Source: an uncultured Hyphomicrobiales bacterium
GTDB taxonomy: Bacteria > Pseudomonadota > Alphaproteobacteria > Rhizobiales > Xanthobacteraceae
Assembly (NCBI GenBank): GCA_964449645.1
Contig: CAYVBN010000353.1
Span: forward strand, 1-31,967
Reading direction: 5' to 3'
Length of the DNA: 31,967 nucleotides
The notes below the pieces were generated by a model. It was not told where the DNA came from and did no database searches. It was given only the letters and a program-made list of their open reading frames with translations. Positions 10,948 through 27,560 of this stretch are shown piece by piece. How positions within the stretch are numbered: the stretch's first letter is position 1; each line of letters opens with the position of its first letter. The translations under genes were made by a program, and so were the position numbers.

Positions 10948-11793
10948 GTCGTGTGGACACTTATCGTGTCCATAGCACGATAGCTGCGAGAGTGACGACT
11001 GCGCGGTAATTTCGGGCGGTCTTTTCGAAGCGGGTTGCAACGCGTCGGAACTGCTTGAGCTTACTGAAACAGCATTCCACCAGATGTCGCTGGGCGTAGA
11101 GATGCTTGTCGAGCGGATATTTGAGCGCCCGTGACGGGTTGTTGGGAATCACGGCCAACGCTCCCTTGGCGGCGATGGCTTGCCGCAGGTGGTCCGCGTC
11201 ATAGGCTGTATCGGCCATGACGACCTCGGCGGGCAGTTCCTCGATCAGGGCTGCAGCTTGTGGTGCATCACCCTTCTGACCCGCGGTCAGTATGAACCGC
11301 ACGGGGCATCCCAAGCCTCGAACGGCCATGTGGATCTTGGTGCTCAGGCCGCCGCGCGAACGGCCGATGGCTTGATCTTCAGACCCCCTTTTTTAGCCCC
11401 GGCAGCGGGCTGATGGGCGCGGACGATGGTGGAATCAACGATCAGATATTCGAAGTCCGGATCATCGGACATCGCCTCGAAGATGCGCCACCAAACACCT
11501 TTGGTGCTCCAGCGACTGAAGCGCCGGAAAACGCTGTTCCAATCGCCAAACACCACGGGAAGATCACGCCAGGGCGCGCCCGTCCGCACAATCCATAGGA
11601 CGCCCTCCACGAACATTCGGTTGTCGCGTCCAGTTGATCCCCTTTGGTCGGGCCGGCCGATGATCAGCGGTGCCATCCGATCCCACGCCGCGTCGCTCAA
11701 AACCAAACGGTCCATCACACCCAAGACTGCCTCCCAAAACGCAGTCTTGAATCTGATTTGCCGCTTCAAGGGAATCCCAAGTGTCCACACGAC
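10948..11793 (-). mobile_element. IS5-family insertion sequence (IS427-group-like), 846 bp
   Basis: Perfect 15-bp terminal IRs GTCGTGTGGACACTT (10948-62)/AAGTGTCCACACGAC (11779-93), flanked by CTAG on both sides (10944-47, 11794-97). An alternative reading is 10947-11794 with a TA duplication. Confidence 0.92.
10961..11715 (-). CDS. IS5-family transposase, split orfA/orfB joined by a -1 frame change
   Basis: orfA is MDRLVLSDAAW...WIVRTGAPWRDLP...IVDSTIVRAH. orfB is GRSRGGLSTKIH...MADTAYD...RHLVECCFSKLKQFRRVATRFEK. A6G5 run at the junction (+ strand 11384-11394). Confidence 0.9.
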
Positions 11794-12159: not shown

Positions 12160-12374
12160 TTCAGCCCCAAAACGCTATTCCGGCAGAGGTGCAATGATGC
12201 CACAGGGGAATTTCCGCCTCGCTGAGCCGATCACTCGCATTTTAGCGATCCCGGAAAGCCTGCTCCGATCTCGGGCACGCGTCCCGAGCACAAAATACCG
12301 AACCATCTGTGGGTTGCCCGGAACCTGGTTCGAGGTTCGCCATCAATGATATAAGGCGAATTCGGAGGCATACG

Positions 12375-12758
12375 GTGCCCGACCGAGGCAAGAAGCGAGG
12401 CTGGAGCCCATTGCGGCGCATCACCGCCTGGGTCGTTGCCTATGCGCTTGTCCTCCACGCCATCCTCGGACTGGCGCCGCTCCACCACGAGGGCGGCCAC
12501 GCCCTCGCAACGGAGTTCTGCGCGGGCACCAGCGGACCCGGCACATCCGGCCACAGCGGCCAGTCGGGGCATTCCGGAAGCTGCTGCGACCTTTGCCTCG
12601 CCTGCGGTTGCGCGGCGTTCGTCGCTCCCGATGCTGTTCGTGCTACATCCGAGCCTTCGGACCCGGATCGCATTCGATGGTCGTCTCTGCATGACGTCGG
12701 GCGGTATCTCCCCGGACTGTTCAAGGAACAAGCCCGAGCACCTCCGCTGACGGCCTGA
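12375..12758 (+). CDS. DUF2946-family leader protein (CruR/CutF-like) with C-terminal RAPP motif
   Basis: GTG 12375 with GGAGG at 12364-68. Basic N-terminus, TM segment ITAWVVAYALVLHAILGL, EFC, CCDLCLACGC, and the end QARAPPLTA. Confidence 0.85.
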   Translation: MPDRGKKRGWSPLRRITAWVVAYALVLHAILGLAPLHHEGGHALATEFCAGTSGPGTSGHSGQSGHSGSCCDLCLACGCAAFVAPDAVRATSEPSDPDRIRWSSLHDVGRYLPGLFKEQARAPPLTA

Positions 12759-12815: not shown

Positions 12816-13805
12816 ATGTCCATTCGTACGCTCCGCGCAGTCCTGCCGGGACTTGCGCTGATACTGGTTCCAAGCGGAATCCAAGCCCACGAGATCGTGG
12901 GCAAGAGATTCTTTCCGGCCACGCTCGCGATCGACGATCCCGGGGTCAACGACGAACTCGCCTTCCCGACCATCTCCGTCTTCAAGAACGAGGACGATCC
13001 TTCGGCTCGCGAGTTGGACGTCTCGGGAGAGTTCTCGAAACGCATCACCGAAGACTTCGCGGTTTCGTTCGAGCCCACCTGGACTCACCTCCGCGCTCCG
13101 GGCGGGCCGAACGGGACCGACGCATCGGGCTTCCAGAATCTCGAAACGACCTTCAAGTATCGCCTTTATAAAAATCCGACGCACGAGTTCGTGCTTTCGG
13201 CCGGCCTCAACGTCGAGTGGGGCGGCAGCGGCGCTCAGCAGGTCGGAGCCGAAAGCTTCACCACCTACACGCCAACGGTCTTTTTCGGCAAAGGCCTCGG
13301 CGACCTGCCGGAGACGCTGAACTGGGCCCGCCCGTTCGCGATCACCGGTCAGGTCGGCTATGCGATCCCGGGATCGAGATCGAGCACCACGTTCGATCCC
13401 GACACGGGCGATCTCGACTTCGAGCAGCACCCCGATGTCCTGGTCTGGGGCGCATCGCTCCAGTACAGCCTGCCCTATCTGAACGCCTCGGTGGTCGATC
13501 TCGGGCTGCCGGACTTCGTCAATCGGCTGATCCCGATCGTCGAGGTTGCGCTGCAGACGCCTGTCGCCAACACTTTGACCTCGGGCACGCTCACCACCGG
13601 AACGGTCAATCCCGGCGTGCTCTGGGTCGGCGACACTTACCAGGTCGGGCTCGAAGCGATGATCCCGATCAACCGGGCGAGCGGGACCAGCGTAGGCGCC
13701 ATCGCCCAGATCCATTTTTATCTCGACGACATCTTCCCCCATTCGATCGGCCGGCCGATCTTCGCCGTGTCCGACAGCACAGGGAGGCCGAGCTTCGGCA
13801 ACTGA
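12816..13805 (+). CDS. Uncharacterised exported protein, probable outer-membrane beta-barrel with mature N-terminal His
   Basis: Signal peptide ending GIQA|HEIVG. Alternating amphipathic strands such as LDVSGEFSKRIT, FAVSFEPTWTH, LETTFKYRLY, VWGASLQYS and YQVGLEAMIP. Confidence 0.7.
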   Translation: MSIRTLRAVLPGLALILVPSGIQAHEIVGKRFFPATLAIDDPGVNDELAFPTISVFKNEDDPSARELDVSGEFSKRITEDFAVSFEPTWTHLRAPGGPNGTDASGFQNLETTFKYRLYKNPTHEFVLSAGLNVEWGGSGAQQVGAESFTTYTPTVFFGKGLGDLPETLNWARPFAITGQVGYAIPGSRSSTTFDPDTGDLDFEQHPDVLVWGASLQYSLPYLNASVVDLGLPDFVNRLIPIVEVALQTPVANTLTSGTLTTGTVNPGVLWVGDTYQVGLEAMIPINRASGTSVGAIAQIHFYLDDIFPHSIGRPIFAVSDSTGRPSFGN

Positions 13806-13807
13806 CC

Positions 13808-14164
13808 ATGCGCATCACCACTCTCGTCATCGCAACCGTCGCGACCCTGCAGTTGGGAATGGCGGCCGCAAGCGCGCACGCGCATCTCGAGCGCGCCGAA
13901 CCGGCGGTCGGAAGCTCGGTGAAGACTCCTCCGCGCGAGGTCTCGATCCGGTTCACCCAGAAGCTCGAGCCGTCGTTCAGCACGATCGAGGTGACCGACG
14001 CGTCCGGAAAGCGCGTCGACAATGGCCGTGCCCGGATCACCGGCAACACCATGCAGGTCCCGCTCCAGCCGATCGGCGCAGGCACGTATCGGGTGAAGTG
14101 GCACGCCCTCTCGGTCGACAGCCACACCACCGAGGGCGATTTCACGTTCCGCGTCGGCCAATAA
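13808..14164 (+). CDS. copC: Periplasmic copper-binding protein CopC
   Basis: Signal peptide ending ASA|HAHLERAEP, then F...LEP and YRVKWHALSVDSHTTEGDFTFRV. Confidence 0.93.
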   Translation: MRITTLVIATVATLQLGMAAASAHAHLERAEPAVGSSVKTPPREVSIRFTQKLEPSFSTIEVTDASGKRVDNGRARITGNTMQVPLQPIGAGTYRVKWHALSVDSHTTEGDFTFRVGQ

Positions 14165-14195: not shown

Positions 14196-16151
14196 ATGGA
14201 CAACTTCCCGCTGATCGCCGTGCGCGCGGTCCACTTCGCCGCCACGGCGGTCAGCGGGGGCGTGGTGCTGTTCCTGGTGGCGGTCCTCCGGCCGGCTCTG
14301 GCCGAAACGCGAGAGGCCGAAGCCGACGCGGCAGAGTTTCACGCACGCTGCATCCGGCTTGCCTCTGGGAGCGTCGCGGTCGTTCTGGTGACGGCTCTCC
14401 TCTGGGCCATGCTGGAAGCCGCCGCCATGAGCGGCGAAAGCTTCGGTGCGGCGCTCAGGACCGGATTGCTCTGGACCGTATTGGGGCAGACGACGTTCGG
14501 CCTCTCCACCGATGTCCGGTTCGGTTTGGCCCTGCTGCTCGCCATCAGCCTGGCGCTGACCGGCGCGCACCGCGGCATGCTGTGGCTCGGCCTTGCGGCT
14601 GCCGCCGGCCTGCTCGGCGGGCTTGCCTGGACCGGCCATGCGGCGGCCACGGAGGGGTGGACCGGGACGCTGCACCGGGTTGCCGATGTCCTCCACCTTC
14701 TCGCCGCAGGCGCGTGGATCGGAAGCCTCGTTCCGCTGGCCATGGTCCTGACGATCGCCCGCCGGCGCGCCGATAGCCGCTGGGCCGCGATCGCGCGTGG
14801 CGCCACGGCCCGGTTCTCCACGATCGGCGTCATCAGCGTCGGCACGCTGCTCGCGACGGGAATCGTCAACACGTGGATCCTTTCCGGCACGCTGCCGGCG
14901 CTCTTCGGAACCGGTTACGGACACCTGCTGCTGATCAAGATCGGCCTGTTCGCCGCCATGGTGACGCTCGCGGCGGTCAACCGGCTGCGGCTGACGCCGC
15001 ACCTTGCCGATCCGCAAGGCAGCACATCGTGGCGGCACGCGTCGCACCGGTTGACGCGCAACGCCATCGCGGAGACCGCCTTGGGGCTGGCGATCTTCGC
15101 CGTGGTCGGCGCGCTGGGAATTCTCGTTCCCGGACTGCACGACCAGCCGACCTGGCCGTTTCCATATCGCCTCGCCGGCCAGTTCGCGGGCGATCCCGCG
15201 CTCGACGGCACGACGCTCCTCGCGCTGGGTGTGACCCTCGTGGGCATTTGTCTCATCGTCGGCGGCCTGTTCTGGCGCGAGATGCGCTGGCCGATGCTGA
15301 TCGGGGGCGCCGTGCTGGCCGCCAATTTCGGGACAGGCCTCGGCAGCCTGTTTGTGGAAGCATATCCGACGACCTTCTATGCCTCGCCCACCGGATATGC
15401 CGCCTCGTCGATCGCGCACGGCCGGGATCTGTTCGCCGAGCATTGCGTGGCGTGCCACGGCGTCGGCGGCCGGGGCGACGGTCCGGCCGCCGCCAACATG
15501 GCCATCAAGCCGGCCGACCTCGTTGCCGACCACGTCTACGCCCACACCGACGGCGACCTGTTCTGGTGGATCGGTCACGGCATCGGCACGGCCATGCCGG
15601 GCTTTGCCGCAGTGCTCGACGACGACGCCCGCTGGAATCTGGTCGATTTCATTCACGCGAATGCGGATGCGGCGCACCTGAAAGCGGCGGCCGGAACGGT
15701 CAGCGCGAACGGATATCCGGCCCCGACCTTCTCGGCCGACTGTCCCGATGGGTCGTCGATCTCGATCGAGGACCTGCACGGCCAGATCGTGCATGTGGCG
15801 GTGGGCGTCTTCTCACCGGACCTGATCAATGCCTTCGCGGAGCGCAGCCGCGCGGCCAGAACGGCGGCGATCCTGATCGCCCGTGATCCGCCGGCCGAAC
15901 TGCCTGCCGCGGTTTGCGCCGCCACGGACGAGAATGTCGTCCGCGTATTCGACCTCTACAGAACGATCGGCGCGGCGCCGGAGCGGACAACCGAGTTGCT
16001 GATCGACACCGGCGGATCGCTGCGCGCCCTGTGGTTCAGGGGCGTCCGCCCCGATTGGGCGAATCCTCCTGCTTTCGCACAGGTGGTCGAAACGCTCCGC
16101 GCAACGCCCGCGCAGCCGCGCAGCACCGGCGGCCATGCTCATCATCACTGA
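14196..16151 (+). CDS. copD: CopD-family inner-membrane protein fused to a cytochrome c domain and a redoxin-like domain
   Basis: RAVHF, LAWTGHAA, DVLHLLAAGAWIGSL, RFS, YGHLLLIK and AAVNR (CopD). CVACH (15444-58) plus AMPGF (cytochrome c). PAPTFS...ISIEDLHGQIVHV (redoxin-like). The protein ends HAHHH. Confidence 0.88.
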   Translation: MDNFPLIAVRAVHFAATAVSGGVVLFLVAVLRPALAETREAEADAAEFHARCIRLASGSVAVVLVTALLWAMLEAAAMSGESFGAALRTGLLWTVLGQTTFGLSTDVRFGLALLLAISLALTGAHRGMLWLGLAAAAGLLGGLAWTGHAAATEGWTGTLHRVADVLHLLAAGAWIGSLVPLAMVLTIARRRADSRWAAIARGATARFSTIGVISVGTLLATGIVNTWILSGTLPALFGTGYGHLLLIKIGLFAAMVTLAAVNRLRLTPHLADPQGSTSWRHASHRLTRNAIAETALGLAIFAVVGALGILVPGLHDQPTWPFPYRLAGQFAGDPALDGTTLLALGVTLVGICLIVGGLFWREMRWPMLIGGAVLAANFGTGLGSLFVEAYPTTFYASPTGYAASSIAHGRDLFAEHCVACHGVGGRGDGPAAANMAIKPADLVADHVYAHTDGDLFWWIGHGIGTAMPGFAAVLDDDARWNLVDFIHANADAAHLKAAAGTVSANGYPAPTFSADCPDGSSISIEDLHGQIVHVAVGVFSPDLINAFAERSRAARTAAILIARDPPAELPAAVCAATDENVVRVFDLYRTIGAAPERTTELLIDTGGSLRALWFRGVRPDWANPPAFAQVVETLRATPAQPRSTGGHAHHH

Positions 16152-16285: not shown

Positions 16286-16876
16286 ATGGCCGCAAAAAAG
16301 AAGCTCACGCCCCGCCTAGCGCCCCCCGACGAGGAGAAGCTGTCTCCGCGTCAGCGCGAACTCATCGACTCGATCCGTTCCGGCCCGCGCGGCAAGGTCA
16401 ATCTCGGGGGTCCGTTCGGGATCTATCTGCACGCGCCCGACTTCGGCGATCTCGCCCAGAAGCTCGGCGCCTTCTGCCGCTATGGGACGTCGGTCCCGCC
16501 GCGCCTGTCGGAGTTCGCCATCCTGGTGACCGCACGGCTCTGGCGCGCGCAGTACGAATGGTACGTTCACGCGCCGATTGCCGAGAAGGCCGGGGTATCG
16601 GCACGCACCATCAGCGACCTCAAGGCCGGCCGCGCGCCCAAATCCGCGCCCAAGGACGAGCGGGCGATTCACGACTTCATCAAGGAGCTCTACAAGAACC
16701 GCCGCGTCAGCGACCGCACCTATGCGCGCGTGCACGCCATCCTGGGCGACACTGGCATGGTCGAGTTCGCCGGGATTCTCGGCTACTACGCGCTCGTCGC
16801 CATGACCCTCGATGTGTTCCGCATTCCGATCGCCGAAGGGGCGGCCCTGCCCTTTTCCGAACCGAAGTCGGCCTGA
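16286..16876 (+). CDS. Carboxymuconolactone decarboxylase (CMD/AhpD-like) family protein
   Basis: GPF..YLHAP, PPRLSEFAILVTARLWRAQYEWYVHAPIA and GMVEFAGILGYYALVAMTL motifs. ATG follows a GAGG SD. Confidence 0.85.
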   Translation: MAAKKKLTPRLAPPDEEKLSPRQRELIDSIRSGPRGKVNLGGPFGIYLHAPDFGDLAQKLGAFCRYGTSVPPRLSEFAILVTARLWRAQYEWYVHAPIAEKAGVSARTISDLKAGRAPKSAPKDERAIHDFIKELYKNRRVSDRTYARVHAILGDTGMVEFAGILGYYALVAMTLDVFRIPIAEGAALPFSEPKSA

Positions 16877-16923: not shown

Positions 16924-17451
16924 TCAGTGCCCCGGCATGTTGCCCATGCTGCCCATGCCCTGCATGCCGGGTTTGGCGGGCGCCTGCGAGTTCTTCGGAC
17001 TTCCGCCGATCCCCTCGACCTCGTATTCGACGTCGACGCTGCCGGCCTTCTCGAATTTCAGCGTGCCCTTGATGTGCTGCCCTTTCTCGAGCGGCTGTTT
17101 CAAGCCCACGAACATGATGTGGTAGGAGCTGTTCGGCCCGAGCTCGACCGTTTCGCCGGGCTTGATTTCGAGACCGCCGGAGACCGGCCGCATCTTCATG
17201 ACGCCGCCGTCCATCTTCATCTCGTGCACCTCGAAACGCTGGGCGACGGCGGACGTGCCGCCGATCAGGCGATCCGGTTCGGTCCCCGAATTGGTGATCT
17301 TCATATATCCGGCCCCGACGCTTGCACCTTTCGGCGTGGCGCGCGACCAGGGGTGAGCGATTTCCAGAGGCCCGACCTTGTATCCCTGGGCGGATGCTGC
17401 GGTCGCGCCGAGCGCGAGCGCTGCCGCGAGAATCACAGTTGCGAATTTCAT
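16924..17451 (-). CDS. Periplasmic Cu(I) chaperone PCuAC
   Basis: ATG 17451 (MKFATVILAAALALGATAASA). HPWSRATP, GAGYMKITN and HEMKMDGGVMKMR...HIM (H-x-M...M...HxM) motifs, plus a Met-rich tail. Confidence 0.93.
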   Translation of the reverse strand: MKFATVILAAALALGATAASAQGYKVGPLEIAHPWSRATPKGASVGAGYMKITNSGTEPDRLIGGTSAVAQRFEVHEMKMDGGVMKMRPVSGGLEIKPGETVELGPNSSYHIMFVGLKQPLEKGQHIKGTLKFEKAGSVDVEYEVEGIGGSPKNSQAPAKPGMQGMGSMGNMPGH

Positions 17452-17458
17452 GTCGTTC

Positions 17459-17555
17459 GATCCCAATGTGAGCCGCCGTGCGCGGCGGCTGGCCTGAACA
17501 GGAGTTGACGTCTGCTTCAGGCGAGCGCAGGCGGGCCGCGCGCCGCATTGGGCTC
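17459..17555 (-). promoter_or_regulatory. Predicted structured leader junction sequestering the PCuAC ribosome-binding region
   Basis: On the minus strand, GAG-CCCAATG-CGG (17555-43) can pair with TCA-CATTGGG-ATC (17471-59). This encloses GCCTGAA/TTCAGGC and AGCCGCCG/CGGCGGCT hairpins. Confidence 0.5.
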
Positions 17556-17888
17556 CCGGCGTGCGGCCTGTCCAAGCGTCCCGGAGAGCACCTCGGGCCG
17601 CAGGACAGCGGAGTGCGGCGTCCGGACGACCGCGGGCGCTGGAGCGGATACGGGCGCGAGCCCGCCCGCGCACATTGGCATGGGACAGAGAAGGCACGCG
17701 TGTTCGACCGGATGGACGCGCCCAGGCGATCCGTCGGACTGCGGACCGAGGTTCGCGGTGCACAAGATGGTGAGCGCGCCGGGAACGGCCGCTTGCGCCA
17801 TCTGGAACGCCCCCAGCGACACCTGGAGCGCCAGCACGTAACAGAGGGCAAGCGCAACCGCGTTCGAGAGAGGCCGACGGGCTGTCAT
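17517..17888 (-). CDS. DUF2946-family leader protein with C-terminal RGPP motif
   Basis: N-terminal TM/signal (VALALCYVLALQVSLG), LTILC, HACLLCPMPMC and the end NAARGPPALA. It lies 65 nt upstream of PCuAC. Confidence 0.82.
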   Translation of the reverse strand: MTARRPLSNAVALALCYVLALQVSLGAFQMAQAAVPGALTILCTANLGPQSDGSPGRVHPVEHACLLCPMPMCAGGLAPVSAPAPAVVRTPHSAVLRPEVLSGTLGQAARREPNAARGPPALA

Positions 17889-17973: not shown

Positions 17974-19521
17974 TCAGTCCCAGTCCCAAGGAGGATAGCG
18001 CCGCTCGAGTTGGTATTGCTCGAGGAAGCACCAGAAGAACTCCGACAGGGGAGATACGGCGAAGCCCCGCGCCCGGTTGGAAGCGGCGACCAGGTAGAGG
18101 ATCCGCTGGTGCTCGAACGTCCGCCGCCAATTCTTCGTCAGCGACAGCCTGGGATCGAACAGATCGAGAGGATCGCCCCCGATCCCGCCGATTTCCAGGA
18201 TGGTAAAATCCTCCCCGCGCGCCAGCGCATCGAGCGAGCGGAAGCGGAGCTTGAACCGGCCGTAGTGAAACTCCGGCAGGTTGCGGGCGATAGCGTCGAG
18301 CTTCGCCTCGAGCTCCGGGGTCAGGCAGCCGGAGCCGTCCTGCGCAGAGCGGTCGGGCGCATCGTGGAGCACCAGCGCAAGAACCTGCCCGCGCGCTTCG
18401 CCGGGACAGCGCGCGTACAGCACGGTCGCCAATCCGGAGCCGGGCGCGTGCGCCTGCAGCATCAGCTTGCTGCCGGCGGGAAAGGCCGCCAAATAGGCCT
18501 GCAGCGCGGCGCGATCCTCGATGACCCGCACGCAACGGCCGTGCGCGCCCATATCGGGCTTTGCGACCAGCGGAAATGCGATCTGCTCCGTTTCGAGCAA
18601 TTGCAACGCGCGGTCCACGTCGAGCGCAAGCGTGGACGGATCGGCCCGGCGCCGCAGCACGACGAAATCGACGATCGAGCCGCGCATGTCGGCGGGCACC
18701 GCCAGGAGCCGCTCGCTCTTCGAATCCGCCCACAGGCCGCCGACCGGAAGCATCGGATTGGCGGCACTCGGCAGAGTGAAGGAACGATAGGCGACAGCAA
18801 GCCGGATCCAGTAAAACAGGACCGGCAGACGCAGGAGCCATGCAGGAACATGATGATGCGCCGCGAACGCGCCGGGGCTGCCGGAGATCGGACGTGGACT
18901 GTGCAATTTCGCACGGCCGGTCGCGCCCTCATCGTTGTCCGGCGGAGTCCTGTCGGTGAACGCCAGCACGCGTTCGCGCACGAACCCGACCGCCGCGAGC
19001 GCACCGAGCAGCGTCGGCCATGCCCACACGCCGAGGCGGTCGTCGAGCGCATCGCCGAAAACCGTGACCAGATAGAGGATGGGCGGCAGGTAGATCGCCG
19101 AGACCAGGAGGCTGGCCGCCGTGAAGCGGACGAGCGATACGCGCGCCCAGCCGCAGGCCACGAAGGCGACGAACACCAATCCGGGCACCAGCCGGCACAG
19201 GGCGACAAGCTCGAAGACGTTTCGCTTGAGCATATCGCCGAACCGGCAGACACGCTCGTCGACCGCGAGCGTTCGCAGCCAAGGCAAGGAGCGCGCTCCG
19301 GCGCCGACCGCATAGAGCGCGAAGTCGCTCACGACCATGCCGCCGTAAATGCTGCCCACCACCATGCCGGCGGGCATCAGATCGTTGACGATGATGTAGC
19401 CGCCCAGAACGATCGCCAGATCTTCGTGCGCGAACGGTAGCGCAACGAGCGAGACCACCTTGGCGAGCCAGGCAAGGTCGAAGCCCACCAGCTTGTGCAA
19501 CGCGGCCACGAAAGTGCCCAC
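17974..19521 (-). CDS. DedA/VTT membrane domain fused to an ATP-grasp-like domain
   Basis: N-terminal FAHEDLAIVLGG...SDFALYAVG...CRLVPGL (DedA). C-terminal FPLVAKPDMGAHGRCV...GRFKLRF...ILEIGG (ATP-grasp-like). Confidence 0.75.
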   Translation of the reverse strand: MGTFVAALHKLVGFDLAWLAKVVSLVALPFAHEDLAIVLGGYIIVNDLMPAGMVVGSIYGGMVVSDFALYAVGAGARSLPWLRTLAVDERVCRFGDMLKRNVFELVALCRLVPGLVFVAFVACGWARVSLVRFTAASLLVSAIYLPPILYLVTVFGDALDDRLGVWAWPTLLGALAAVGFVRERVLAFTDRTPPDNDEGATGRAKLHSPRPISGSPGAFAAHHHVPAWLLRLPVLFYWIRLAVAYRSFTLPSAANPMLPVGGLWADSKSERLLAVPADMRGSIVDFVVLRRRADPSTLALDVDRALQLLETEQIAFPLVAKPDMGAHGRCVRVIEDRAALQAYLAAFPAGSKLMLQAHAPGSGLATVLYARCPGEARGQVLALVLHDAPDRSAQDGSGCLTPELEAKLDAIARNLPEFHYGRFKLRFRSLDALARGEDFTILEIGGIGGDPLDLFDPRLSLTKNWRRTFEHQRILYLVAASNRARGFAVSPLSEFFWCFLEQYQLERRYPPWDWD

Positions 19522-21835: not shown

Positions 21836-22312
21836 ATGCGCATCGAGTATTTCCAGCTCATCGATCGCATCGCCGAAATCGACGTTGATGCCCGGCGCAT
21901 CCGCGCCATCGCGACCGTTCCGCAGACCAGCACGATTTTCGAGGGCCACTTCCCCGGCCATCCGTTGATGCCTGGCGTCCTGCTCATCGAGACGATGGCG
22001 CAGACGTCCGGCTGGCTGGTGATCGGGCTGACGCGGTTCGAGCGGATGCCGTTCCTTGCCGCCGTCAAGGAGGCGAAGTTCCGCCGCTTCGTCACGCCGG
22101 GCGAAGTGCTGTCGGTCGAGGCCGAGCTGGTGCACGACGGGTCCGGATTTGCGGTGACGCACGCCCGGATCGTCGCCAACGGAGAGAAGCCCGTTTGCGA
22201 AGCGGAAATCCGGCTGCGGGTCATGCCGTTTCCCAATCCGGACTTCCGTAGCGGCATGCTGGACTACGCCCGACGGCTGCAATTCCCGCTCGGAGCGACG
22301 GCCGATGGCTGA
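21836..22312 (+). CDS. fabZXL: 3-hydroxyacyl-ACP dehydratase of the VLCFA cluster
   Basis: FQLIDRI and FEGHFPGHPLMPGVLLIETMAQ motifs, in the position after acpXL. Confidence 0.9.
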   Translation: MRIEYFQLIDRIAEIDVDARRIRAIATVPQTSTIFEGHFPGHPLMPGVLLIETMAQTSGWLVIGLTRFERMPFLAAVKEAKFRRFVTPGEVLSVEAELVHDGSGFAVTHARIVANGEKPVCEAEIRLRVMPFPNPDFRSGMLDYARRLQFPLGATADG

Positions 22313-23498
22313 CATGGCACGCGAGGCTTGGATCACCGGCATCGGCATTCTGTCCTGCCTCGGCGAAGGGCCGGAGGCGCACTGGCAAGGGCTGATGGAC
22401 GGCAAGCCGCACGTCGACGTGGACACGTTCGCGCCGTGCATCGTCCATCCGCTGCCGACGGTCGATTTCGACAAGCAGATCCCCAAGAAGGGCGATCAGC
22501 GCCAGATGGAGCCCTGGCAGCGGATCGGTACCTATGCGGCCGGCCTCGCGCTCGACAGTGCCGGCGTCAAGGGCCAGGCCGAACTGCTCGCCCGCATGGA
22601 CATGATCGTCGCCGCCGGCGGCGGTGAGCGGGACGTGACGGTCGACGCGGCGATCCTCAGCGGGATGCCGAAGGCCGACAATCCGGACCGGTTCCTCAAC
22701 GAGCGGCTGATGAACGATCTGCGCCCGACGCTGTTCCTGGCGCAGCTTTCGAACCTGCTCGCCGGCAACATCTCGATCGTGCACGGCGTGACGGGCTCCT
22801 CGCGCACGTTCATGGGCGAGGAAGCCGCCGGCTTCGACGCCGTGCGCATCTCCCTCACGCGCATCCTCGCCGGCCAGAGCGACATCGCGCTCGTCGGCGG
22901 CGCTCACAACGGCGAGCGCAAGGACATGCAGATGCTCTACGAGTTCGGCGGGTTCAACCTGAAGGGCGCGTTCCGTCCGGTCTGGGAGCGCGCGCCGCAG
23001 GGCGGCTTTGCGCTCGGATCACTGGGCGCCTTCCTGGTGATCGAGGATCGCGCACATGCCGAGGCCCGCGGGGCGAAGCCGTACGCACGCCTCTGTTCGA
23101 TCGCGACCGAGCGGTCGCACCGTCAGCCGGGAGCGGTCACGGCCGCGCTGCAGAGCCTCTGGGAGAAGATCGCCGGACGGCTGCAGCCCGGACGATGCGC
23201 CATCATTTCCGGCGCGACGGGCGCCGAGCCCGCAACGACCGAGGAGCGGGATTTCCTGCGCCAGCATCCGGATATCCCGGTGCGCGCTACCGGCACGCTG
23301 CTCGGGCACGGACCGGAACCGCAATTCGCGATGAACATCGCCATTGCGGCGCTCGCGGTGAGCCGGGGTAAACTGTTCCCGCCGCAGGACGGCTCGGGGC
23401 TCGAGCAGCCGATGGATGGGCCGATCACCCAGGCCGTGGTGACAGGCGTGGGACATTGGCGCGGTGAAGGCATGGCCCTCGTCGAAGCCGTGCATTGA
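22305..23498 (+). CDS. fabF2XL: Beta-ketoacyl-ACP synthase-like protein lacking the catalytic Cys
   Basis: WITGIG, KKGDQRQMEPWQRIGTYAAGLAL and RPTLFLAQLSNLLAGNISI motifs. TFMGEEAAG stands where active synthases have TACASG. Confidence 0.88.
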   Translation: MADMAREAWITGIGILSCLGEGPEAHWQGLMDGKPHVDVDTFAPCIVHPLPTVDFDKQIPKKGDQRQMEPWQRIGTYAAGLALDSAGVKGQAELLARMDMIVAAGGGERDVTVDAAILSGMPKADNPDRFLNERLMNDLRPTLFLAQLSNLLAGNISIVHGVTGSSRTFMGEEAAGFDAVRISLTRILAGQSDIALVGGAHNGERKDMQMLYEFGGFNLKGAFRPVWERAPQGGFALGSLGAFLVIEDRAHAEARGAKPYARLCSIATERSHRQPGAVTAALQSLWEKIAGRLQPGRCAIISGATGAEPATTEERDFLRQHPDIPVRATGTLLGHGPEPQFAMNIAIAALAVSRGKLFPPQDGSGLEQPMDGPITQAVVTGVGHWRGEGMALVEAVH

Positions 23499-23509
23499 GG
23501 AGAACACCT

Positions 23510-24790
23510 ATGGCAGCGATGCGCGACAAGGCAGGCCGGCCCGTCGTCGCAGTGACCGGCATGGGCGTCGTCACGTCGCTCGGCGCCGGCAAGAGCGAGA
23601 ATTGGAACAGGCTCGTCGCCGGCCAATCCGGCATCCGCGCCATCACGCGTTTCCCCACCGACGGGCTGAAAACGCGCGTCGCTGGCACCATCGATTTCGT
23701 CGCTGTCGACCCGCTCGTGGCCCCGCAGCTCGCCGAGCGGCTGGCCGAGATCGCGATCGAAGAAGCGATCACGGAATCCGCGATCGACACGGCCGGCAGT
23801 TTTCCCGGACCGCTCTTTCTCGCGGTGGCCCCGATCGAGATCGAATGGCCACAGCGCGCCGAACTCGCCAAGGCGTCGGGATCGAACGAGGCCGTGACCT
23901 ACGACCACCTCATCCGCGCCGCCGGCGGCGGGCGCTTTCGCCCGTTTCACGACCGTTTCCTGTTCGGTTCGGTCGGCGACCACCTGGCCGACAAGTTTGG
24001 AACCCGCGGCACGCCCATTTCGCTCTCGACGGCGTGCGCCTCGGGCGCAAGCGCCATCCAGCTCGGGCTCGAGGCGATCCGCCGCGGCGAGGCGGATGCG
24101 GCGCTGTGCGTCGCGACCGACGGCTCGGTCAATCCCGAAAGCCTGGTGCGCTTTTCGCTCCTGTCGGCGCTCTCGACCCAGAATGATCCGCCGGAGGCGG
24201 CCCCCAAGCCGTTCGCCAAGAATCGCGACGGCTTCGTGATGGCCGAAGGCGCGGGCGCCCTCGTGCTGGAGAACTACGACAGCGCCAAGGCGCGCGGCGC
24301 GAAGATTCTCGGCATCATCGAGGGCTGCGGCGAGCTCGCCGACTCCTTCCACCGCACCCGCTCAAGCCCCGACGGAAAGCCGATCATCGGCTGCATGCGC
24401 AACGCGATCGCCGATGCGGGGCTCGAGCCCGACGCCATCGACTACATCAACGCACACGGGACCGGCACGCCCGAGAACGACAAGATGGAATGTCTCGGTG
24501 TCACGACCGTGTTCGGCGAGCGCATCAAGGACATCCCGATCTCCTCGAATAAATCGATGATCGGGCACACGCTCTCGGCCGCAGGCGCCGTCGAGGCGGT
24601 GATCTCGCTTCTCACTCTCGATCGTCAGCGCATTCCGCCGACCATCAACTACAAGGTCCCCGACCCCGCCATTCCGCTCGACGTCGTCCCGAACACCGCG
24701 CGCGACGCGCGCATCACCCACGCGATCTCCAACTCGTTCGGTTTCGGCGGCCAAAACGTCTCGCTCGTGATGGCGCGAGAGCCGGCCTGA
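23510..24790 (+). CDS. fabF1XL: Beta-ketoacyl-ACP synthase (active-site intact)
   Basis: ATG 23510 follows GAGGAG. STACASG, NAHGTGT, KSMIGHTL and SNSFGFGG motifs. Confidence 0.92.
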   Translation: MAAMRDKAGRPVVAVTGMGVVTSLGAGKSENWNRLVAGQSGIRAITRFPTDGLKTRVAGTIDFVAVDPLVAPQLAERLAEIAIEEAITESAIDTAGSFPGPLFLAVAPIEIEWPQRAELAKASGSNEAVTYDHLIRAAGGGRFRPFHDRFLFGSVGDHLADKFGTRGTPISLSTACASGASAIQLGLEAIRRGEADAALCVATDGSVNPESLVRFSLLSALSTQNDPPEAAPKPFAKNRDGFVMAEGAGALVLENYDSAKARGAKILGIIEGCGELADSFHRTRSSPDGKPIIGCMRNAIADAGLEPDAIDYINAHGTGTPENDKMECLGVTTVFGERIKDIPISSNKSMIGHTLSAAGAVEAVISLLTLDRQRIPPTINYKVPDPAIPLDVVPNTARDARITHAISNSFGFGGQNVSLVMAREPA

Positions 24791-25554
24791 TGACATCTGC
24801 TGCCGCTCGGCGCGTTCTGGTGACGGGCGGCGGACGCGGCCTCGGCACCGCCATCGTGCGGGCGCTGGCGCAAGCGGGTCACGATGTCACCTTCACGTAT
24901 CGCTCGGCCGCCGCGGATGCCGAGGCGCTGCTCGCGGAGCTCGGCGCGGCCTATCCGCGGCAGACCTTCGCGGCGCATAGCGTCGATCTCGCCGACAAAG
25001 CGGCGGTGGAAACCTTTGCGAAGGTGCTGGACAGCGAGACGCCCTACTCCGGTTTCGTGCACAACGCCGGGCAGTCCTACGACGCGCTCGCCATGATGAT
25101 GGACCAGGACAAGGCCGAGCAGGCGATGCAGGTGAACTTCTGGTCCTTCGCGCGGATCGCCAGCGTGCTCGTGCGGCCGATGATGCGCGCGCGCGACGGG
25201 CGGATCGCAGCGATCGGATCGGTCACCGCCCTGCAGGCCAACCAGGGCAATGCCGCCTACGCGGCCTCGAAATCCGCGCTTCTCGGCTATGTGCGCACGC
25301 TCGCGGTCGAAACGGCGCGCAGCGGCGTGACGGCCAACTACGTGGCGCCGGGCTTCATCGACACCGCCATGGTCGCGCCTTACGCAAAATATCGCGAGCA
25401 GATGGAAAGCCAGATCCCGGCGCGCCGCTTCGCCCGCCCGGACGAGATCGCCGGGGTCGTCGCCTTCCTGCTGTCGCCGCAGGCGACCTACGTCACCGGG
25501 TCGGTGTTGACCGTTGACGGCGGGCTTTCGGCAGCGATAGGCATCCATCGCTAA
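24790..25554 (+). CDS. SDR-family FabG-like 3-oxoacyl-ACP reductase
   Basis: TGGGRGLG, HNAG, S...YAASK, VAPGFIDT and TGSVLTVDGG motifs. TGATG coupling to fabF1XL. Confidence 0.88.
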   Translation: MTSAAARRVLVTGGGRGLGTAIVRALAQAGHDVTFTYRSAAADAEALLAELGAAYPRQTFAAHSVDLADKAAVETFAKVLDSETPYSGFVHNAGQSYDALAMMMDQDKAEQAMQVNFWSFARIASVLVRPMMRARDGRIAAIGSVTALQANQGNAAYAASKSALLGYVRTLAVETARSGVTANYVAPGFIDTAMVAPYAKYREQMESQIPARRFARPDEIAGVVAFLLSPQATYVTGSVLTVDGGLSAAIGIHR

Positions 25555-25586
25555 TCCCCGACAACGACGCCCGGACACACGATCTC

Positions 25587-26609
25587 ATGCGTGCGCTTAC
25601 CCTTGTCGCCGACCGGAAGCTCGAGTTGCGCGACGTCGAGCCGCCCCCGCCTCCCGGTCCCGGCGAGGTGCAGGTGCGCGTCAAGGCCGTGGCTCTCAAC
25701 CACATCGACGTATGGGGTTTCCGCGGCATGGCGTTCGCGAAGCGCAAGCTGCCGCTCGTGGTCGGCGCGGAAGCCGCCGGCGAAATCGCCGCGCTCGGTC
25801 CCGGCGTCGACGGCTTCGCCCCCGGGGATCCGGTCGTGATGTACGGCGCCATGACCTGCGCGACCTGCAAGGCCTGCCGCGAAGGCCGCGACAATCTGTG
25901 CGAGAACGTCCAAGGCATCATGGGCTTCCACATCGACGGCTTCGCGCGCGACCTGCTCAATCTGCCGGCGCGGCTGACGATCCCGGTGCCCAAGGGCGTC
26001 GCGCTTCGCGATGCCGCGTGCGCGCCGATCGCGTTTTCGACGGTCGAGCACATGCTGTTCGACAATGCCAAGCTCCAGCCCGGCGAGACGGTCCTGGTGC
26101 ATGCCGGCGGCTCCGGCATCGGCACCGCCGCGATCCGCATGGCCAAGGCGATCGGCTGCACCGTCATCACGACGGTGGGCGACGACACCAAGGCCGAGAA
26201 GGCGAAGGCGCTCGGGGCCGATCACGTGATCAACTACCGGACCGACCGGTTCGAGCACCTGGTGCGGAAGATCACTGCCAAGAAGGGCGTCGACGTCGTG
26301 TTCGAGCACGTCGGGGCCGAGACGTTCAACGGCTCGCTTCTGTCGCTCAAGCGCGGCGGCCGGCTCGTCACCTGCGGATCGACCTCGGGCCCGACAACGA
26401 CCATCAACCTGATGCAGCTCTTCCAGCAACAGTACAAGATCTTCGGCTCGTTCGGCGCCTCAATGCGCAACATTCGCGACGCGCTCGCCAAGATGGCGGA
26501 CGGCATCCTTCCGGTGATCGACACGGAAGTCGATCTGGCCGATCTCGAGCAGGGTCTCGCGCGTCTCGAGAGCCGCCAGGTGTTCGGCAAGGTGATCGTG
26601 CGGTTCTGA
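25587..26609 (+). CDS. adhA2XL: Zn-binding MDR-family oxidoreductase of the VLCFA cluster
   Basis: CATCKAC...NLC structural Zn site and HAGGSGIG nucleotide-binding loop, in the syntenic position before lpxXL. Confidence 0.85.
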   Translation: MRALTLVADRKLELRDVEPPPPPGPGEVQVRVKAVALNHIDVWGFRGMAFAKRKLPLVVGAEAAGEIAALGPGVDGFAPGDPVVMYGAMTCATCKACREGRDNLCENVQGIMGFHIDGFARDLLNLPARLTIPVPKGVALRDAACAPIAFSTVEHMLFDNAKLQPGETVLVHAGGSGIGTAAIRMAKAIGCTVITTVGDDTKAEKAKALGADHVINYRTDRFEHLVRKITAKKGVDVVFEHVGAETFNGSLLSLKRGGRLVTCGSTSGPTTTINLMQLFQQQYKIFGSFGASMRNIRDALAKMADGILPVIDTEVDLADLEQGLARLESRQVFGKVIVRF

Positions 26610-26621
26610 CGAGCGGCAACG

Positions 26622-27560
26622 ATGCGCATGAGCTTCAAGCGGTTTGCGCGGCGACTCGCCGCCGCAACCAAGCCGGCGGTGGACGCGGCGGCCGGACGCC
26701 TCGCCGTCGGGCTGCTCGCGGTGATCCGCCGGTTCAAGCGCGAACGGATCAGCGACATTCTCGGCGCCGGGATGCGCAGGATCGGTCCGTGGCTGCCGGA
26801 GCATCGGATTGGCCGCGCCAATCTCGCGGCCGCCTTCCCGCAGATGCCGCCGGAGGAGATCGAGCGGATTCTTGCCGGCGTCTGGGACAACCTCGGGCGT
26901 CTTGCCGCCGAGTTCGCCTTTCTCGACCGGCTGCGCATCCCCGAGGTCCCGGACCAGCCCGCCGCCGTGGCGGACATCACCTACGATCGCGCCACCTACG
27001 ACCGCTTCCTGCGGCTACGCTCCGAACGCAAGCCGGCGCTCGTCTTCGCCGCCCATCTCGCCAATTGGGAGCTTCCGGCGCTCGTCGCCGGCGTGCACGG
27101 GCTCGATGCAGTCGTGCTCTATCGCCGCCCCAATCTCGGCGCGGTGGCCGATGCGGTGATGCAGATCCGGCAGACCAGCATGGTGCAGATGGTGCCGACG
27201 AGCCTCTCGGCGCCGCTGAAGCTGGCACGTGCGCTCGAGGCCGGCCGCCTCGCCGCAATGCTCGTCGACCAGCATTACGTGAAAGGCGTCGAGGTCACGT
27301 TCTTTGGCCGTCGCTGTCTCGCCAATCCGCTGATCGCCGCGCTCGCCCGGCAGATCGAATGCCCGATCTACGGCACGCGCGTCGTCCGGCTGCCCGGCCA
27401 CCGCTTTCGCGCGGAGATCAGCGAGGCCATCCCGCCGGTGCGCGACGCCGAGGGCCGCATCGACGTGCAAGGCACAATGCAGGCGATCACTTCGGTGATC
27501 GAGGGCTGGGTGCGCGAGCACCCCGAGCAATGGCTGTGGCTGCACCGGCGCTGGCGCTGA
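26622..27560 (+). CDS. lpxXL: Lipid A very-long-chain fatty acyltransferase
   Basis: HLANWE, YRRPN, MLVDQ and PEQWLWLHRRWR motifs (LpxL family), at the end of the acpXL cluster. Confidence 0.9.
   Translation: MRMSFKRFARRLAAATKPAVDAAAGRLAVGLLAVIRRFKRERISDILGAGMRRIGPWLPEHRIGRANLAAAFPQMPPEEIERILAGVWDNLGRLAAEFAFLDRLRIPEVPDQPAAVADITYDRATYDRFLRLRSERKPALVFAAHLANWELPALVAGVHGLDAVVLYRRPNLGAVADAVMQIRQTSMVQMVPTSLSAPLKLARALEAGRLAAMLVDQHYVKGVEVTFFGRRCLANPLIAALARQIECPIYGTRVVRLPGHRFRAEISEAIPPVRDAEGRIDVQGTMQAITSVIEGWVREHPEQWLWLHRRWR

Follow-up and report, generated by a model that had tools for sequence, protein, structure and literature searches.

Copper uptake by bacterial proteins of the CopD family has been described in several systems that resemble the one considered here. 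In Escherichia coli, the inner-membrane protein YebZ works with the CopC-like protein YobA in the AZY importer and has YebY (DUF2511) as a further partner; it has been demonstrated that mutation of either of two YebZ histidines (H135, H154) reduces or abolishes copper uptake, and the oxidation state of copper during YebZ import was found not to be assignable (PMC11923076). In Bacillus subtilis and Corynebacterium glutamicum, YcnJ (CopC-CopD-YtkA) and CtiP (CopD-CtaG) join a CopD core to an extracytoplasmic copper-handling domain, and both are used under copper limitation. According to a 2026 study of B. subtilis, YcnJ has no known reductase, and the authors, who refer to CcoG, discuss the requirement for a cupric reductase that acts locally. 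It has also been reported that approximately 4% of proteobacterial CopDs, including the CopD of Methylosinus trichosporium OB3b, possess a cytochrome cbb3-type and a Sco1/thioredoxin-like domain at their C-terminus (PMC11923076, Commun Biol 2025). Three-part proteins of this type receive one sentence in that paper, which proposes no topology, conservation analysis, mechanism or function for them; the gene for the OB3b-type protein adjoins copC and often lies near a gene for the copper chaperone PCuAC. The present analysis concerns a member of this group encoded by an uncultured Hyphomicrobiales bacterium (family Xanthobacteraceae), in contig CAYVBN010000353.1 of assembly GCA_964449645.1, positions 1 to 31,967 of the forward strand; this whole stretch of 31,967 nucleotides is referred to below as the window. 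The protein is the last product of a conserved operon that spans the cell envelope, and the evidence gathered below suggests that its predicted c-type haem may reduce Cu(II) in the course of copper uptake.

The open reading frame (ORF) at 14196-16151 on the plus strand is intact, and its product of 651 amino acids (aa) consists, in this order, of a CopD core, two extra transmembrane (TM) helices, a monohaem cytochrome c, a thioredoxin fold that lacks CxxC and a tail with an HxH motif. The three domains of the published subfamily of CopDs with cytochrome c and Sco/thioredoxin-like extensions (PMC11923076) are found here in one polypeptide and in the same order, an architecture that is shared with the M. 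trichosporium OB3b-type CopD. In this regard, the division into CopD, cytochrome c and degenerate redoxin that had been offered by an earlier model-generated note on this DNA (here called the sequence-only reading) is borne out by NCBIfam and Pfam models, by an AlphaFold2 (AF2) model, by Foldseek and by profile comparisons. Since the architecture is already on record, the value of the case lies in the mechanism and the operon context and not in the fusion itself. The parts of the protein, with the means by which each was recognised, are the following.

14196..15143 (+), aa 1-316: CopD core of eight TM helices (NCBIfam NF033808, Pfam PF05425, BLASTP to YebZ)
15210..15356 (+), approximately aa 339-387: two extra TM helices, TM9 and TM10 (hydropathy, positive-inside rule, AF2)
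15387..15686 (+), approximately aa 398-497: class I monohaem cytochrome c domain (Pfam, phmmer, Foldseek)
15699..16112 (+), approximately aa 502-639: thioredoxin-fold domain without CxxC or CxxxC (AF2, Foldseek, profile against the Protein Data Bank (PDB), hhalign)
16131..16148 (+), aa 646-651: C-terminal tail G-H-A-H-H-H, giving the terminus GGHAHHH (conservation, AF2)

A search with the full-length protein revealed relatives in at least 661 protein clusters, and nearly all of the best 120 of these have a length of 620-680 aa and the same CopD/cytochrome c annotation, the closest relative found being 54% identical to the fusion. A pattern scan of one genome per species located a relative in 226 species, which belong to the Xanthobacteraceae and other Hyphomicrobiales, the Stellaceae, Acetobacteraceae, Casimicrobiaceae and other Burkholderiales, the Methylomirabilota, Rokubacteria and Deltaproteobacteria. 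The full architecture is kept down to approximately 31-35% identity in Alpha-, Beta- and Deltaproteobacteria, Methylomirabilota and Rokubacteria, and such conservation across phyla is more than chance. Residue conservation was assessed in two sets, namely an alignment of 47 full-length homologues and a wider set of 60 sequences (59 genomic homologues plus the query) in which identity falls to the same 31-35%. Residues that are invariant in the former include H148, D164, H167, H315, W320, P321, C417, C420, H421, M467, P468, L602 and D604, and in the latter H148, H167, K248, N262, H315, W320, the CxxCH motif, M467, D604 and R610 still do not vary.

The N-terminal half of the fusion is a CopD protein by every measure applied. 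The NCBIfam equivalog NF033808 (copper_CopD) covers aa 5-312 with 226.5 bits, above its cutoff of 195, Pfam PF05425 covers aa 203-307 (E 1.8e-24, 86.5 bits with a cutoff of 32.1), and BLASTP of E. coli YebZ with aa 1-312 returned 29% identity (E 2e-19). In the latter comparison the eight-helix core is aligned end to end, and YebZ H135 and H154 correspond to H148 and H167, both of which are present in all 60 sequences. YebZ, on the other hand, stops after TM8 and possesses neither TM9-TM10 nor the haem and redoxin-like domains, and its partner YebY is absent at the window locus. Based on this relationship, the protein is a CopD-family inner-membrane copper importer, import being its predicted activity.

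Hydropathy and AF2 agree on ten helices in total, i.e. the eight of CopD plus the two additional segments that the sequence-only reading had perceived, which extend approximately from aa 339 to 360 and from 365 to 387 by hydropathy and from 338 to 359 and 361 to 385 in the model (mean pLDDT, or predicted local distance difference test, 89.5 and predicted TM-score, pTM, 0.82 for the 651 residues). An invariant linker, A389-x-P391-T392, follows TM10, and in the model a small sheet joins residues 324-326, after TM8, to residues 386-388, after TM10. Averaged over the family, the five predicted cytoplasmic loops contain 16.5 lysines and arginines as compared to 3.7 in the periplasmic loops, and this bias predicts an N-out/C-out topology of ten helices in which TM9 and TM10 bring the chain back to the periplasm. 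The YebZ histidines are periplasmic in the model of the YebZ paper, which likewise places the N-terminus outside and agrees strongly with the positive-inside rule. Both the haem domain and the redoxin-like domain are thus predicted to be periplasmic, and an extracytoplasmic site is needed for Ccm-dependent attachment of haem. The sequence-only reading depended on such a location, as a cytoplasmic CxxCH domain would be incompatible with it, and the charge bias and the helix count both point to the periplasm. Conserved residues on the predicted periplasmic face of the CopD core are H13, H148, D164 and H167, and just past TM8 H315 and the pair W320-P321 are invariant.

The cytochrome domain is recognised by two Pfam models that overlap at aa 406-487 (PF13442, E 1.5e-12; PF00034, E 2.3e-11). 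Its haem motif C417-V-A-C420-H421 (CVACH, aa 417-421) and its axial methionine, M467-P468 within TAMPGF, are present as the sequence-only reading had described them; the ligands are invariant in the 47 homologues, and CxxCH and Met-Pro, the former together with a distal Met being characteristic of class I c-type cytochromes, occur in all 60 sequences, which indicates that haem function is under selection. The closest solved protein according to both Foldseek and phmmer is cytochrome c552 of Thioalkalivibrio paradoxus (PDB 7o9u, 9vr0), with 44% identity over about 99 residues, a target TM-score (TMt) of 0.77 (Foldseek) and an E-value of 1.5e-16 (phmmer), and M467 aligns with the axial Met103 of c552 in the HMMER alignment. 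This cytochrome is a periplasmic monohaem protein with a midpoint potential (Em) of about +160 mV and with His-rich disordered termini, and it takes electrons from the tri-copper thiocyanate dehydrogenase (TcDH); its residues 79-88 undergo the largest shifts upon TcDH binding, and His83 has been implicated in electron transfer (PMC9456337). The same stretch aligns with aa 441-450 of the fusion (window 15516-15545), where the patch D441-L-T-x-x-H446-x-Y-x-H450-x-D-G-D-L represents the most conserved surface motif of the domain; His83 corresponds to H446 and His87 to H450, and both are kept in 58 of the 60 sequences. Fold, CxxCH, axial Met and the His83/His87 patch are therefore common to c552 and the haem domain, and the His-rich termini of c552 recall the C-terminal tail of the fusion; c552 differs in being soluble and stand-alone and in accepting electrons from thiocyanate dehydrogenase, whereas the domain described here is fused to a transporter. 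The match of the patch is the best evidence, albeit indirect, that the haem domain communicates with a copper site.

No model of the Pfam or NCBIfam libraries matches aa 495-651, which contain the domain that begins with PAPTFS...SIEDLHGQIV. The sequence-only reading had taken this segment as the start of a redoxin without CxxC, and Foldseek indeed identifies a thioredoxin fold, in a region where the AF2 model has a pLDDT of about 90. Matches comprise BsSco, ResA, TlpA, PrxQ, Tpx, 2-Cys peroxiredoxins and the Prx-like 2ywn, with TM-scores of 0.5-0.62 and 12-22% identity; the Sco fold in particular was retrieved as BsSco 1xzo (E 1.2e-3, TMt 0.56), and the Bradyrhizobium japonicum ScoI 4wbj was also matched. 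In common with Sco1/SenC, TlpA/ResA and peroxiredoxins, the domain has a thioredoxin fold with an N-terminal beta-hairpin and the strand motif 'LIDxxGxLR'. When its profile was compared with the PDB, the AhpC/TSA protein 5enu was matched through strand motifs only (E 3e-4) and Etrx thioredoxins with E 0.02, the WCGPC loop of Etrx falling into a gap of the alignment; by hhalign, similarity to the genuine Sco of a related locus is confined to the N-terminal hairpin and ends before the Sco Cys motif.

What the domain lacks are the residues by which these families are defined. The CxxxC and distal His that serve as copper ligands in Sco1/SenC are missing, no Cys following the strand VHVAV here or elsewhere in the family; the CxxC active site of TlpA/ResA does not occur in aa 500-651; and no Cys occupies the active-site position of the peroxidatic PxxxT/SxxC motif of AhpC/TSA, a family defined by this Cys and by a catalytic Arg. 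An active-site Cys is absent in every member examined, including distant ones that are labelled AhpC-TSA by Pfam. With neither CxxxC and His nor CxxC anywhere in the family, the domain cannot act as a Sco or a TlpA protein, and since membership of the Sco, TlpA/ResA and Prx families fails on the defining residues, 'degenerate redoxin' is an accurate label. Conservation within the domain is found in D604 and R610, which are invariant in the set of 60. Unlike the three families, its only cysteines are C516 and C574, located elsewhere and absent from half of the family: they occur in 31 of the 60 homologues, always both or neither, and most likely form a clade-specific disulfide. The possibility that this pair and the His tail jointly form a copper site of the Sco kind was rejected as a family feature, given that sequences without the pair keep the HxH tail; the 'SPD' that follows VHVAV was likewise considered as a counterpart of the Sco motif CPDVCP, and it is not conserved in homologues and was treated as coincidence.

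The terminus GGHAHHH is present as the sequence-only reading had reported. A C-terminal HxH occurs in 56 of 60 homologues and H649 in 46 of 47, and residues 645-651 are predicted to be disordered (pLDDT <50). Such conservation speaks for a motif and not for the incidental metal buffer that the tail had been taken for; that it captures copper would be a guess, made by analogy with the His-rich termini of c552 and the Met/His-rich tail of PCuAC.

The genes that precede the fusion on the same strand are the following.

12309..12758 (+), true start uncertain: CruR/DUF2946-like leader ORF with CxxC and a C-terminal RAPP arrest motif (translation, locus survey)
12816..13805 (+): outer-membrane beta-barrel of 329 aa, the first structural gene of the operon (AF2, Foldseek)
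13808..14164 (+): CopC, a periplasmic copper-binding protein of the Cu(II)-site type (Pfam CopC E 1.2e-24, YobA alignment)

With the fusion gene as its last member, this is a conserved envelope-spanning operon of leader, barrel, CopC and CopD-cytochrome. CopC, the start of which was corrected to the ATG at 13808, ends 31 nucleotides upstream of the fusion gene, and 73 of 80 related loci have a CopC gene in front of the fusion. The protein shows 34% identity to E. coli YobA; the two share the mature N-terminus AHAHL as well as D-x-H, a motif of the Cu(II) site. These features and the presence of one Met only in the mature part are in keeping with the Cu(II)-type partner that the sequence-only reading had presumed; the likeness to the AZY importer thus extends from YebZ to YobA.

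The 329-aa protein has no Pfam or NCBIfam match. Its AF2 model is all-beta (pLDDT 89.1), and Foldseek relates it to the 12-stranded FapF (5o68, E 8e-10, TMt approximately 0.7) as well as to NanC and KdgM; a homologue in the related locus L082 matches PF13557, the histidine at the mature N-terminus (His25, A|HGF) is invariant, and the gene is found upstream of CopC in 47 of the 80 loci. It is predicted with high confidence to form a barrel of 12 strands and is a candidate outer-membrane copper channel.

The translation of the leader contains CxxC motifs and ends in ...EQARAPPLTA, and a first ORF with CxxC and RAPP is the mark by which operons of the CruR (DUF2946) type are recognised. Of the 64 related loci whose sequence extends far enough, 38 possess an upstream leader with CxxC and R[AG]PP; the barrel gene is present at 44, and 35 of these have such a leader. 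CruR of Bordetella turns downstream genes off when copper is present (PMC9426467), and by analogy the operon is expected to be on under copper starvation. Neither a CruR-like leader nor an outer-membrane barrel is described in the published account of the OB3b-type CopD. A scan for promoters and terminators between 11800 and 18000 returned nothing above shuffled expectation.

Convergent with the operon lies a second copper module.

16924..17451 (-): PCuAC copper chaperone (Pfam PCuAC E 3.9e-38)
17517-17888 (-): a leader ORF of its own, CruR/DUF2946-like and ending in RGPPALA (sequence motif)

The C-terminal tail of this PCuAC is Met/His-rich (...PGMQGMGSMGNMPGH).

Variants of the same CopD branch reveal which accessory parts are constant. 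Among P0176, P0177, P0180 and L083, some proteins have the order CopD-YtkA-TM-cytochrome c, and in others the chain consists of CopD and cytochrome c and stops behind the haem domain; at L083 (5001-8067) separate Sco and PCuAC genes come after a gene for CopD-cytochrome c that lacks the redoxin-like part, and this gene adjoins a TonB-dependent receptor with ExbBD-TonB. As such variants retain the cytochrome and some lose the redoxin-like domain, the cytochrome is, at the level of domain composition, the constant accessory of this CopD branch and the redoxin-like domain an optional one, which may have descended from a neighbouring Sco gene.

Taken together, the anatomy of the fusion, its predicted topology and its Cu(II)-type CopC are consistent with a reading in which the haem reduces CopC-delivered Cu(II), either for passage through CopD or for hand-off to Cu(I) chaperones, and to which, both destinations included, we assign a probability of roughly 0.5. 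Cu(II) would enter through the outer-membrane barrel and would then be captured by the Cu(II)-only CopC, while the c552-like haem domain would be tethered right above the periplasmic copper-entry site at His148 and His167 and would be kept reduced by an external periplasmic donor, e.g. a soluble c-type cytochrome. Reduction at the interface of CopC and CopD would release the copper from CopC, because CopC has no Cu(I) site, and Cu(I) would subsequently pass through the CopD channel or be transferred to periplasmic Cu(I) chaperones such as PCuAC and Sco. The redoxin-like domain would in this scheme be no thiol oxidoreductase and most likely a docking or scaffold module, and the HxH tail would serve as an auxiliary copper-capture arm. 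The narrower claim that the c552-like domain is a dedicated periplasmic cupric reductase which removes Cu(II) from CopC through its reduction at the CopD entrance is more tentative, and we consider it slightly less probable than its negation.

Several observations favour haem-dependent reduction during uptake. Cytochromes of the same type are found joined to CopD-YtkA and, at loci where Sco and PCuAC genes come next, to CopD, both of which link haem to copper, and a role in uptake is supported by the conserved CruR-type leader, by the frequent presence of CopC and barrel genes and by the Cu(II)-type of the CopC partner. The need for a reductase is moreover an open matter, as the oxidation state of copper in CopD import is unresolved and YcnJ is without a known reductase. 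Reduction of Cu(II) before or while it is transported or used has precedents in the eukaryotic pairs Fre1/Ctr1 and STEAP/Ctr1 and in the bacterial CcoG and NDH-2, which are offered here as analogy only. Fre and STEAP have an unrelated fold and transmembrane b-haems that are fed by cytoplasmic NAD(P)H, whereas the fusion has a periplasmic c-type haem that needs a periplasmic donor; CcoG is again of unrelated fold and is, unlike the fusion, a cytoplasm-facing Fe-S protein.

A number of considerations weigh against this reading. The operon encodes no electron donor for the haem, so that the system is not the 'self-contained' importer that the sequence-only reading had proposed, even though the reductive mechanism itself is plausible. 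Approximately 96% of CopDs have no cytochrome domain and yet import copper, which means that reduction is no general requirement of CopD transport; data from B. subtilis favour hand-over of Cu(II) from CopC to CopD; and according to a review, a copCD mutant of M. trichosporium OB3b showed that these genes are not critical for copper uptake or the copper switch. The reduction potential of Cu(II) is expected to be lower in a tight complex with CopC than in the free ion, and for this reason a haem with an Em of about +160 mV may reduce it poorly if the reaction is not coupled to capture of Cu(I). The resemblance to c552 is, finally, silent on the direction of electron flow, which is not readable from sequence.

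The alternative that survives best is that the protein serves as a platform for the assembly of cuproenzymes, in which copper is managed by the CopD module and the cytochrome c and Sco-like domains bind to cytochrome oxidase, to another periplasmic or membrane cuproenzyme or to Sco/PCuAC. Copper would then be handed over locally for CuA/CuB assembly, and the haem would dock or keep the acceptor site reduced and would not drive import. Other CopDs are fused to domains of oxidase assembly, i.e. YtkA in B. subtilis YcnJ and CtaG in C. glutamicum CtiP, although these accessory domains differ from those of the fusion and bring no redox cofactor, and the CopD-YtkA-cytochrome c variants unite both kinds of accessory. 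A PCuAC gene is present nearby in the window and near the fusion homologue in 10 of the 80 related loci, a genuine Sco gene lies immediately downstream of the fusion in five loci and after the variant without redoxin-like domain in L083, and the C-terminal domain itself matches the fold of BsSco. In opposition to these indications, the ligands of Sco and the CxxC of TlpA/ResA are absent throughout the family, no oxidase genes are located in the window, and the operon is laid out as an uptake pathway with outer-membrane channel, CopC and CopD. We regard this alternative as improbable on balance, with perhaps one chance in a handful or slightly better in its favour.

It is considerably less likely that the fusion is a redox-gated importer, in which the haem senses the redox state of the periplasm or the respiratory chain and switches CopD transport with no electron passing to copper. 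A cytochrome rigidly tethered to the transporter, as the conserved linker and the pTM suggest, would suit such a switch, as would the lack of a dedicated electron donor, and invariant haem ligands fit any haem-dependent role; however, class I cytochromes with His/Met ligation are typically electron carriers and not sensors, and the conserved patch matches the interface through which c552 exchanges electrons with a copper enzyme. The weakest alternative is detoxification in the reverse direction, with the haem accepting electrons from Cu(I) as in a cuprous oxidase and CopD acting in resistance or export: c552 physiologically accepts electrons from Cu(I) centres, and old annotations ('copper resistance protein D', 'putative copper export protein') and Joint Genome Institute (JGI) names of homologues ('copper export/resistance') point the same way, but YebZ-type CopDs are importers, the leader is of the CruR type, known from Bordetella to silence genes in the presence of copper, and no CopA/CopB, multicopper oxidase or Cus genes are found near the fusion in the window or in the related loci, which makes this explanation very unlikely.

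Should the c552-like domain be a dedicated cupric reductase, it would be the first such enzyme with a periplasmic haem to be linked to a copper importer of bacteria. CopD would then transport Cu(I), and the operon of leader, barrel, CopC and CopD-cytochrome would represent a complete redox-driven copper-acquisition pathway across the envelope. Such a mechanism touches two open questions, i.e. the oxidation state in which copper is carried by CopD and the place where Cu(II) undergoes reduction as bacteria take it up. Bacterial cupric reductases named in the literature that was found are limited to CcoG and NDH-2, neither of which is a periplasmic haem protein, and no proposal of haem-dependent Cu(II) reduction by CopD fusions was encountered in the literature searched, the coverage of which is incomplete. 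That a natural fusion of CopD to a periplasmic cytochrome c is so widespread hints strongly at a possible coupling of reduction to CopD function, and the fusion provides a single polypeptide on which this idea can be tested. Members of the subfamily come from Alpha- and Betaproteobacteria of soil, from methanotrophs (M. trichosporium) and from Methylomirabilota, organisms in which the supply of copper limits methane oxidation and respiration.

Among the related loci, a small protein with a Met-rich MTMGF motif follows the fusion in six cases and is possibly CusF-like. A search with aa 390-651 alone retrieved, besides the variant architectures described above, mostly fragments at contig ends, and most other short matches are fragments on contigs of 1-3 kb. 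Two apparent architectures were discarded. The metagenomic protein P0098 (766 aa), which appeared to be a 'Rosetta stone' fusion of PCuAC, CopD and cytochrome, is an artefact: its CopD C-terminus is frameshifted, the PCuAC portion behind it possesses a separate signal peptide, and the whole is a read-through or frameshift of two adjacent genes. P0143, considered as a stand-alone protein of TM9-TM10, cytochrome and thioredoxin domains, was rejected because CopC is split and the CopD region broken at its locus, which points to an assembly laden with frameshifts. In the long-read metagenome-assembled genome (MAG) of L082 (2006-5915), CopC is split, the CopD region is broken and a 304-aa 'cytochrome' gene is called alone, most likely as a result of assembly frameshifts.

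Between the two convergent copper modules of the window lies a gene of the carboxymuconolactone decarboxylase (CMD) family (16286-16876, plus strand), which was considered as a part of the module and dismissed, as it is found in none of the 80 related loci. Just upstream of the copper region, an IS4/IS5-family transposase (10961-11790, minus strand) is split into two ORFs (DUF4096, DDE domain). A protein of 515 aa encoded at 17974-19521 on the minus strand carries a VTT/DedA domain at its N-terminus, and its C-terminal half gives weak matches of the ATP-grasp type. Further along, two ketoacyl synthases, a short-chain dehydrogenase/reductase (SDR), a zinc alcohol dehydrogenase and a lipid A acyltransferase are clustered at 22305-27560 on the plus strand, an arrangement that resembles the rhizobial cluster for very-long-chain fatty acids of lipid A and suggests a host of the Hyphomicrobiales type.

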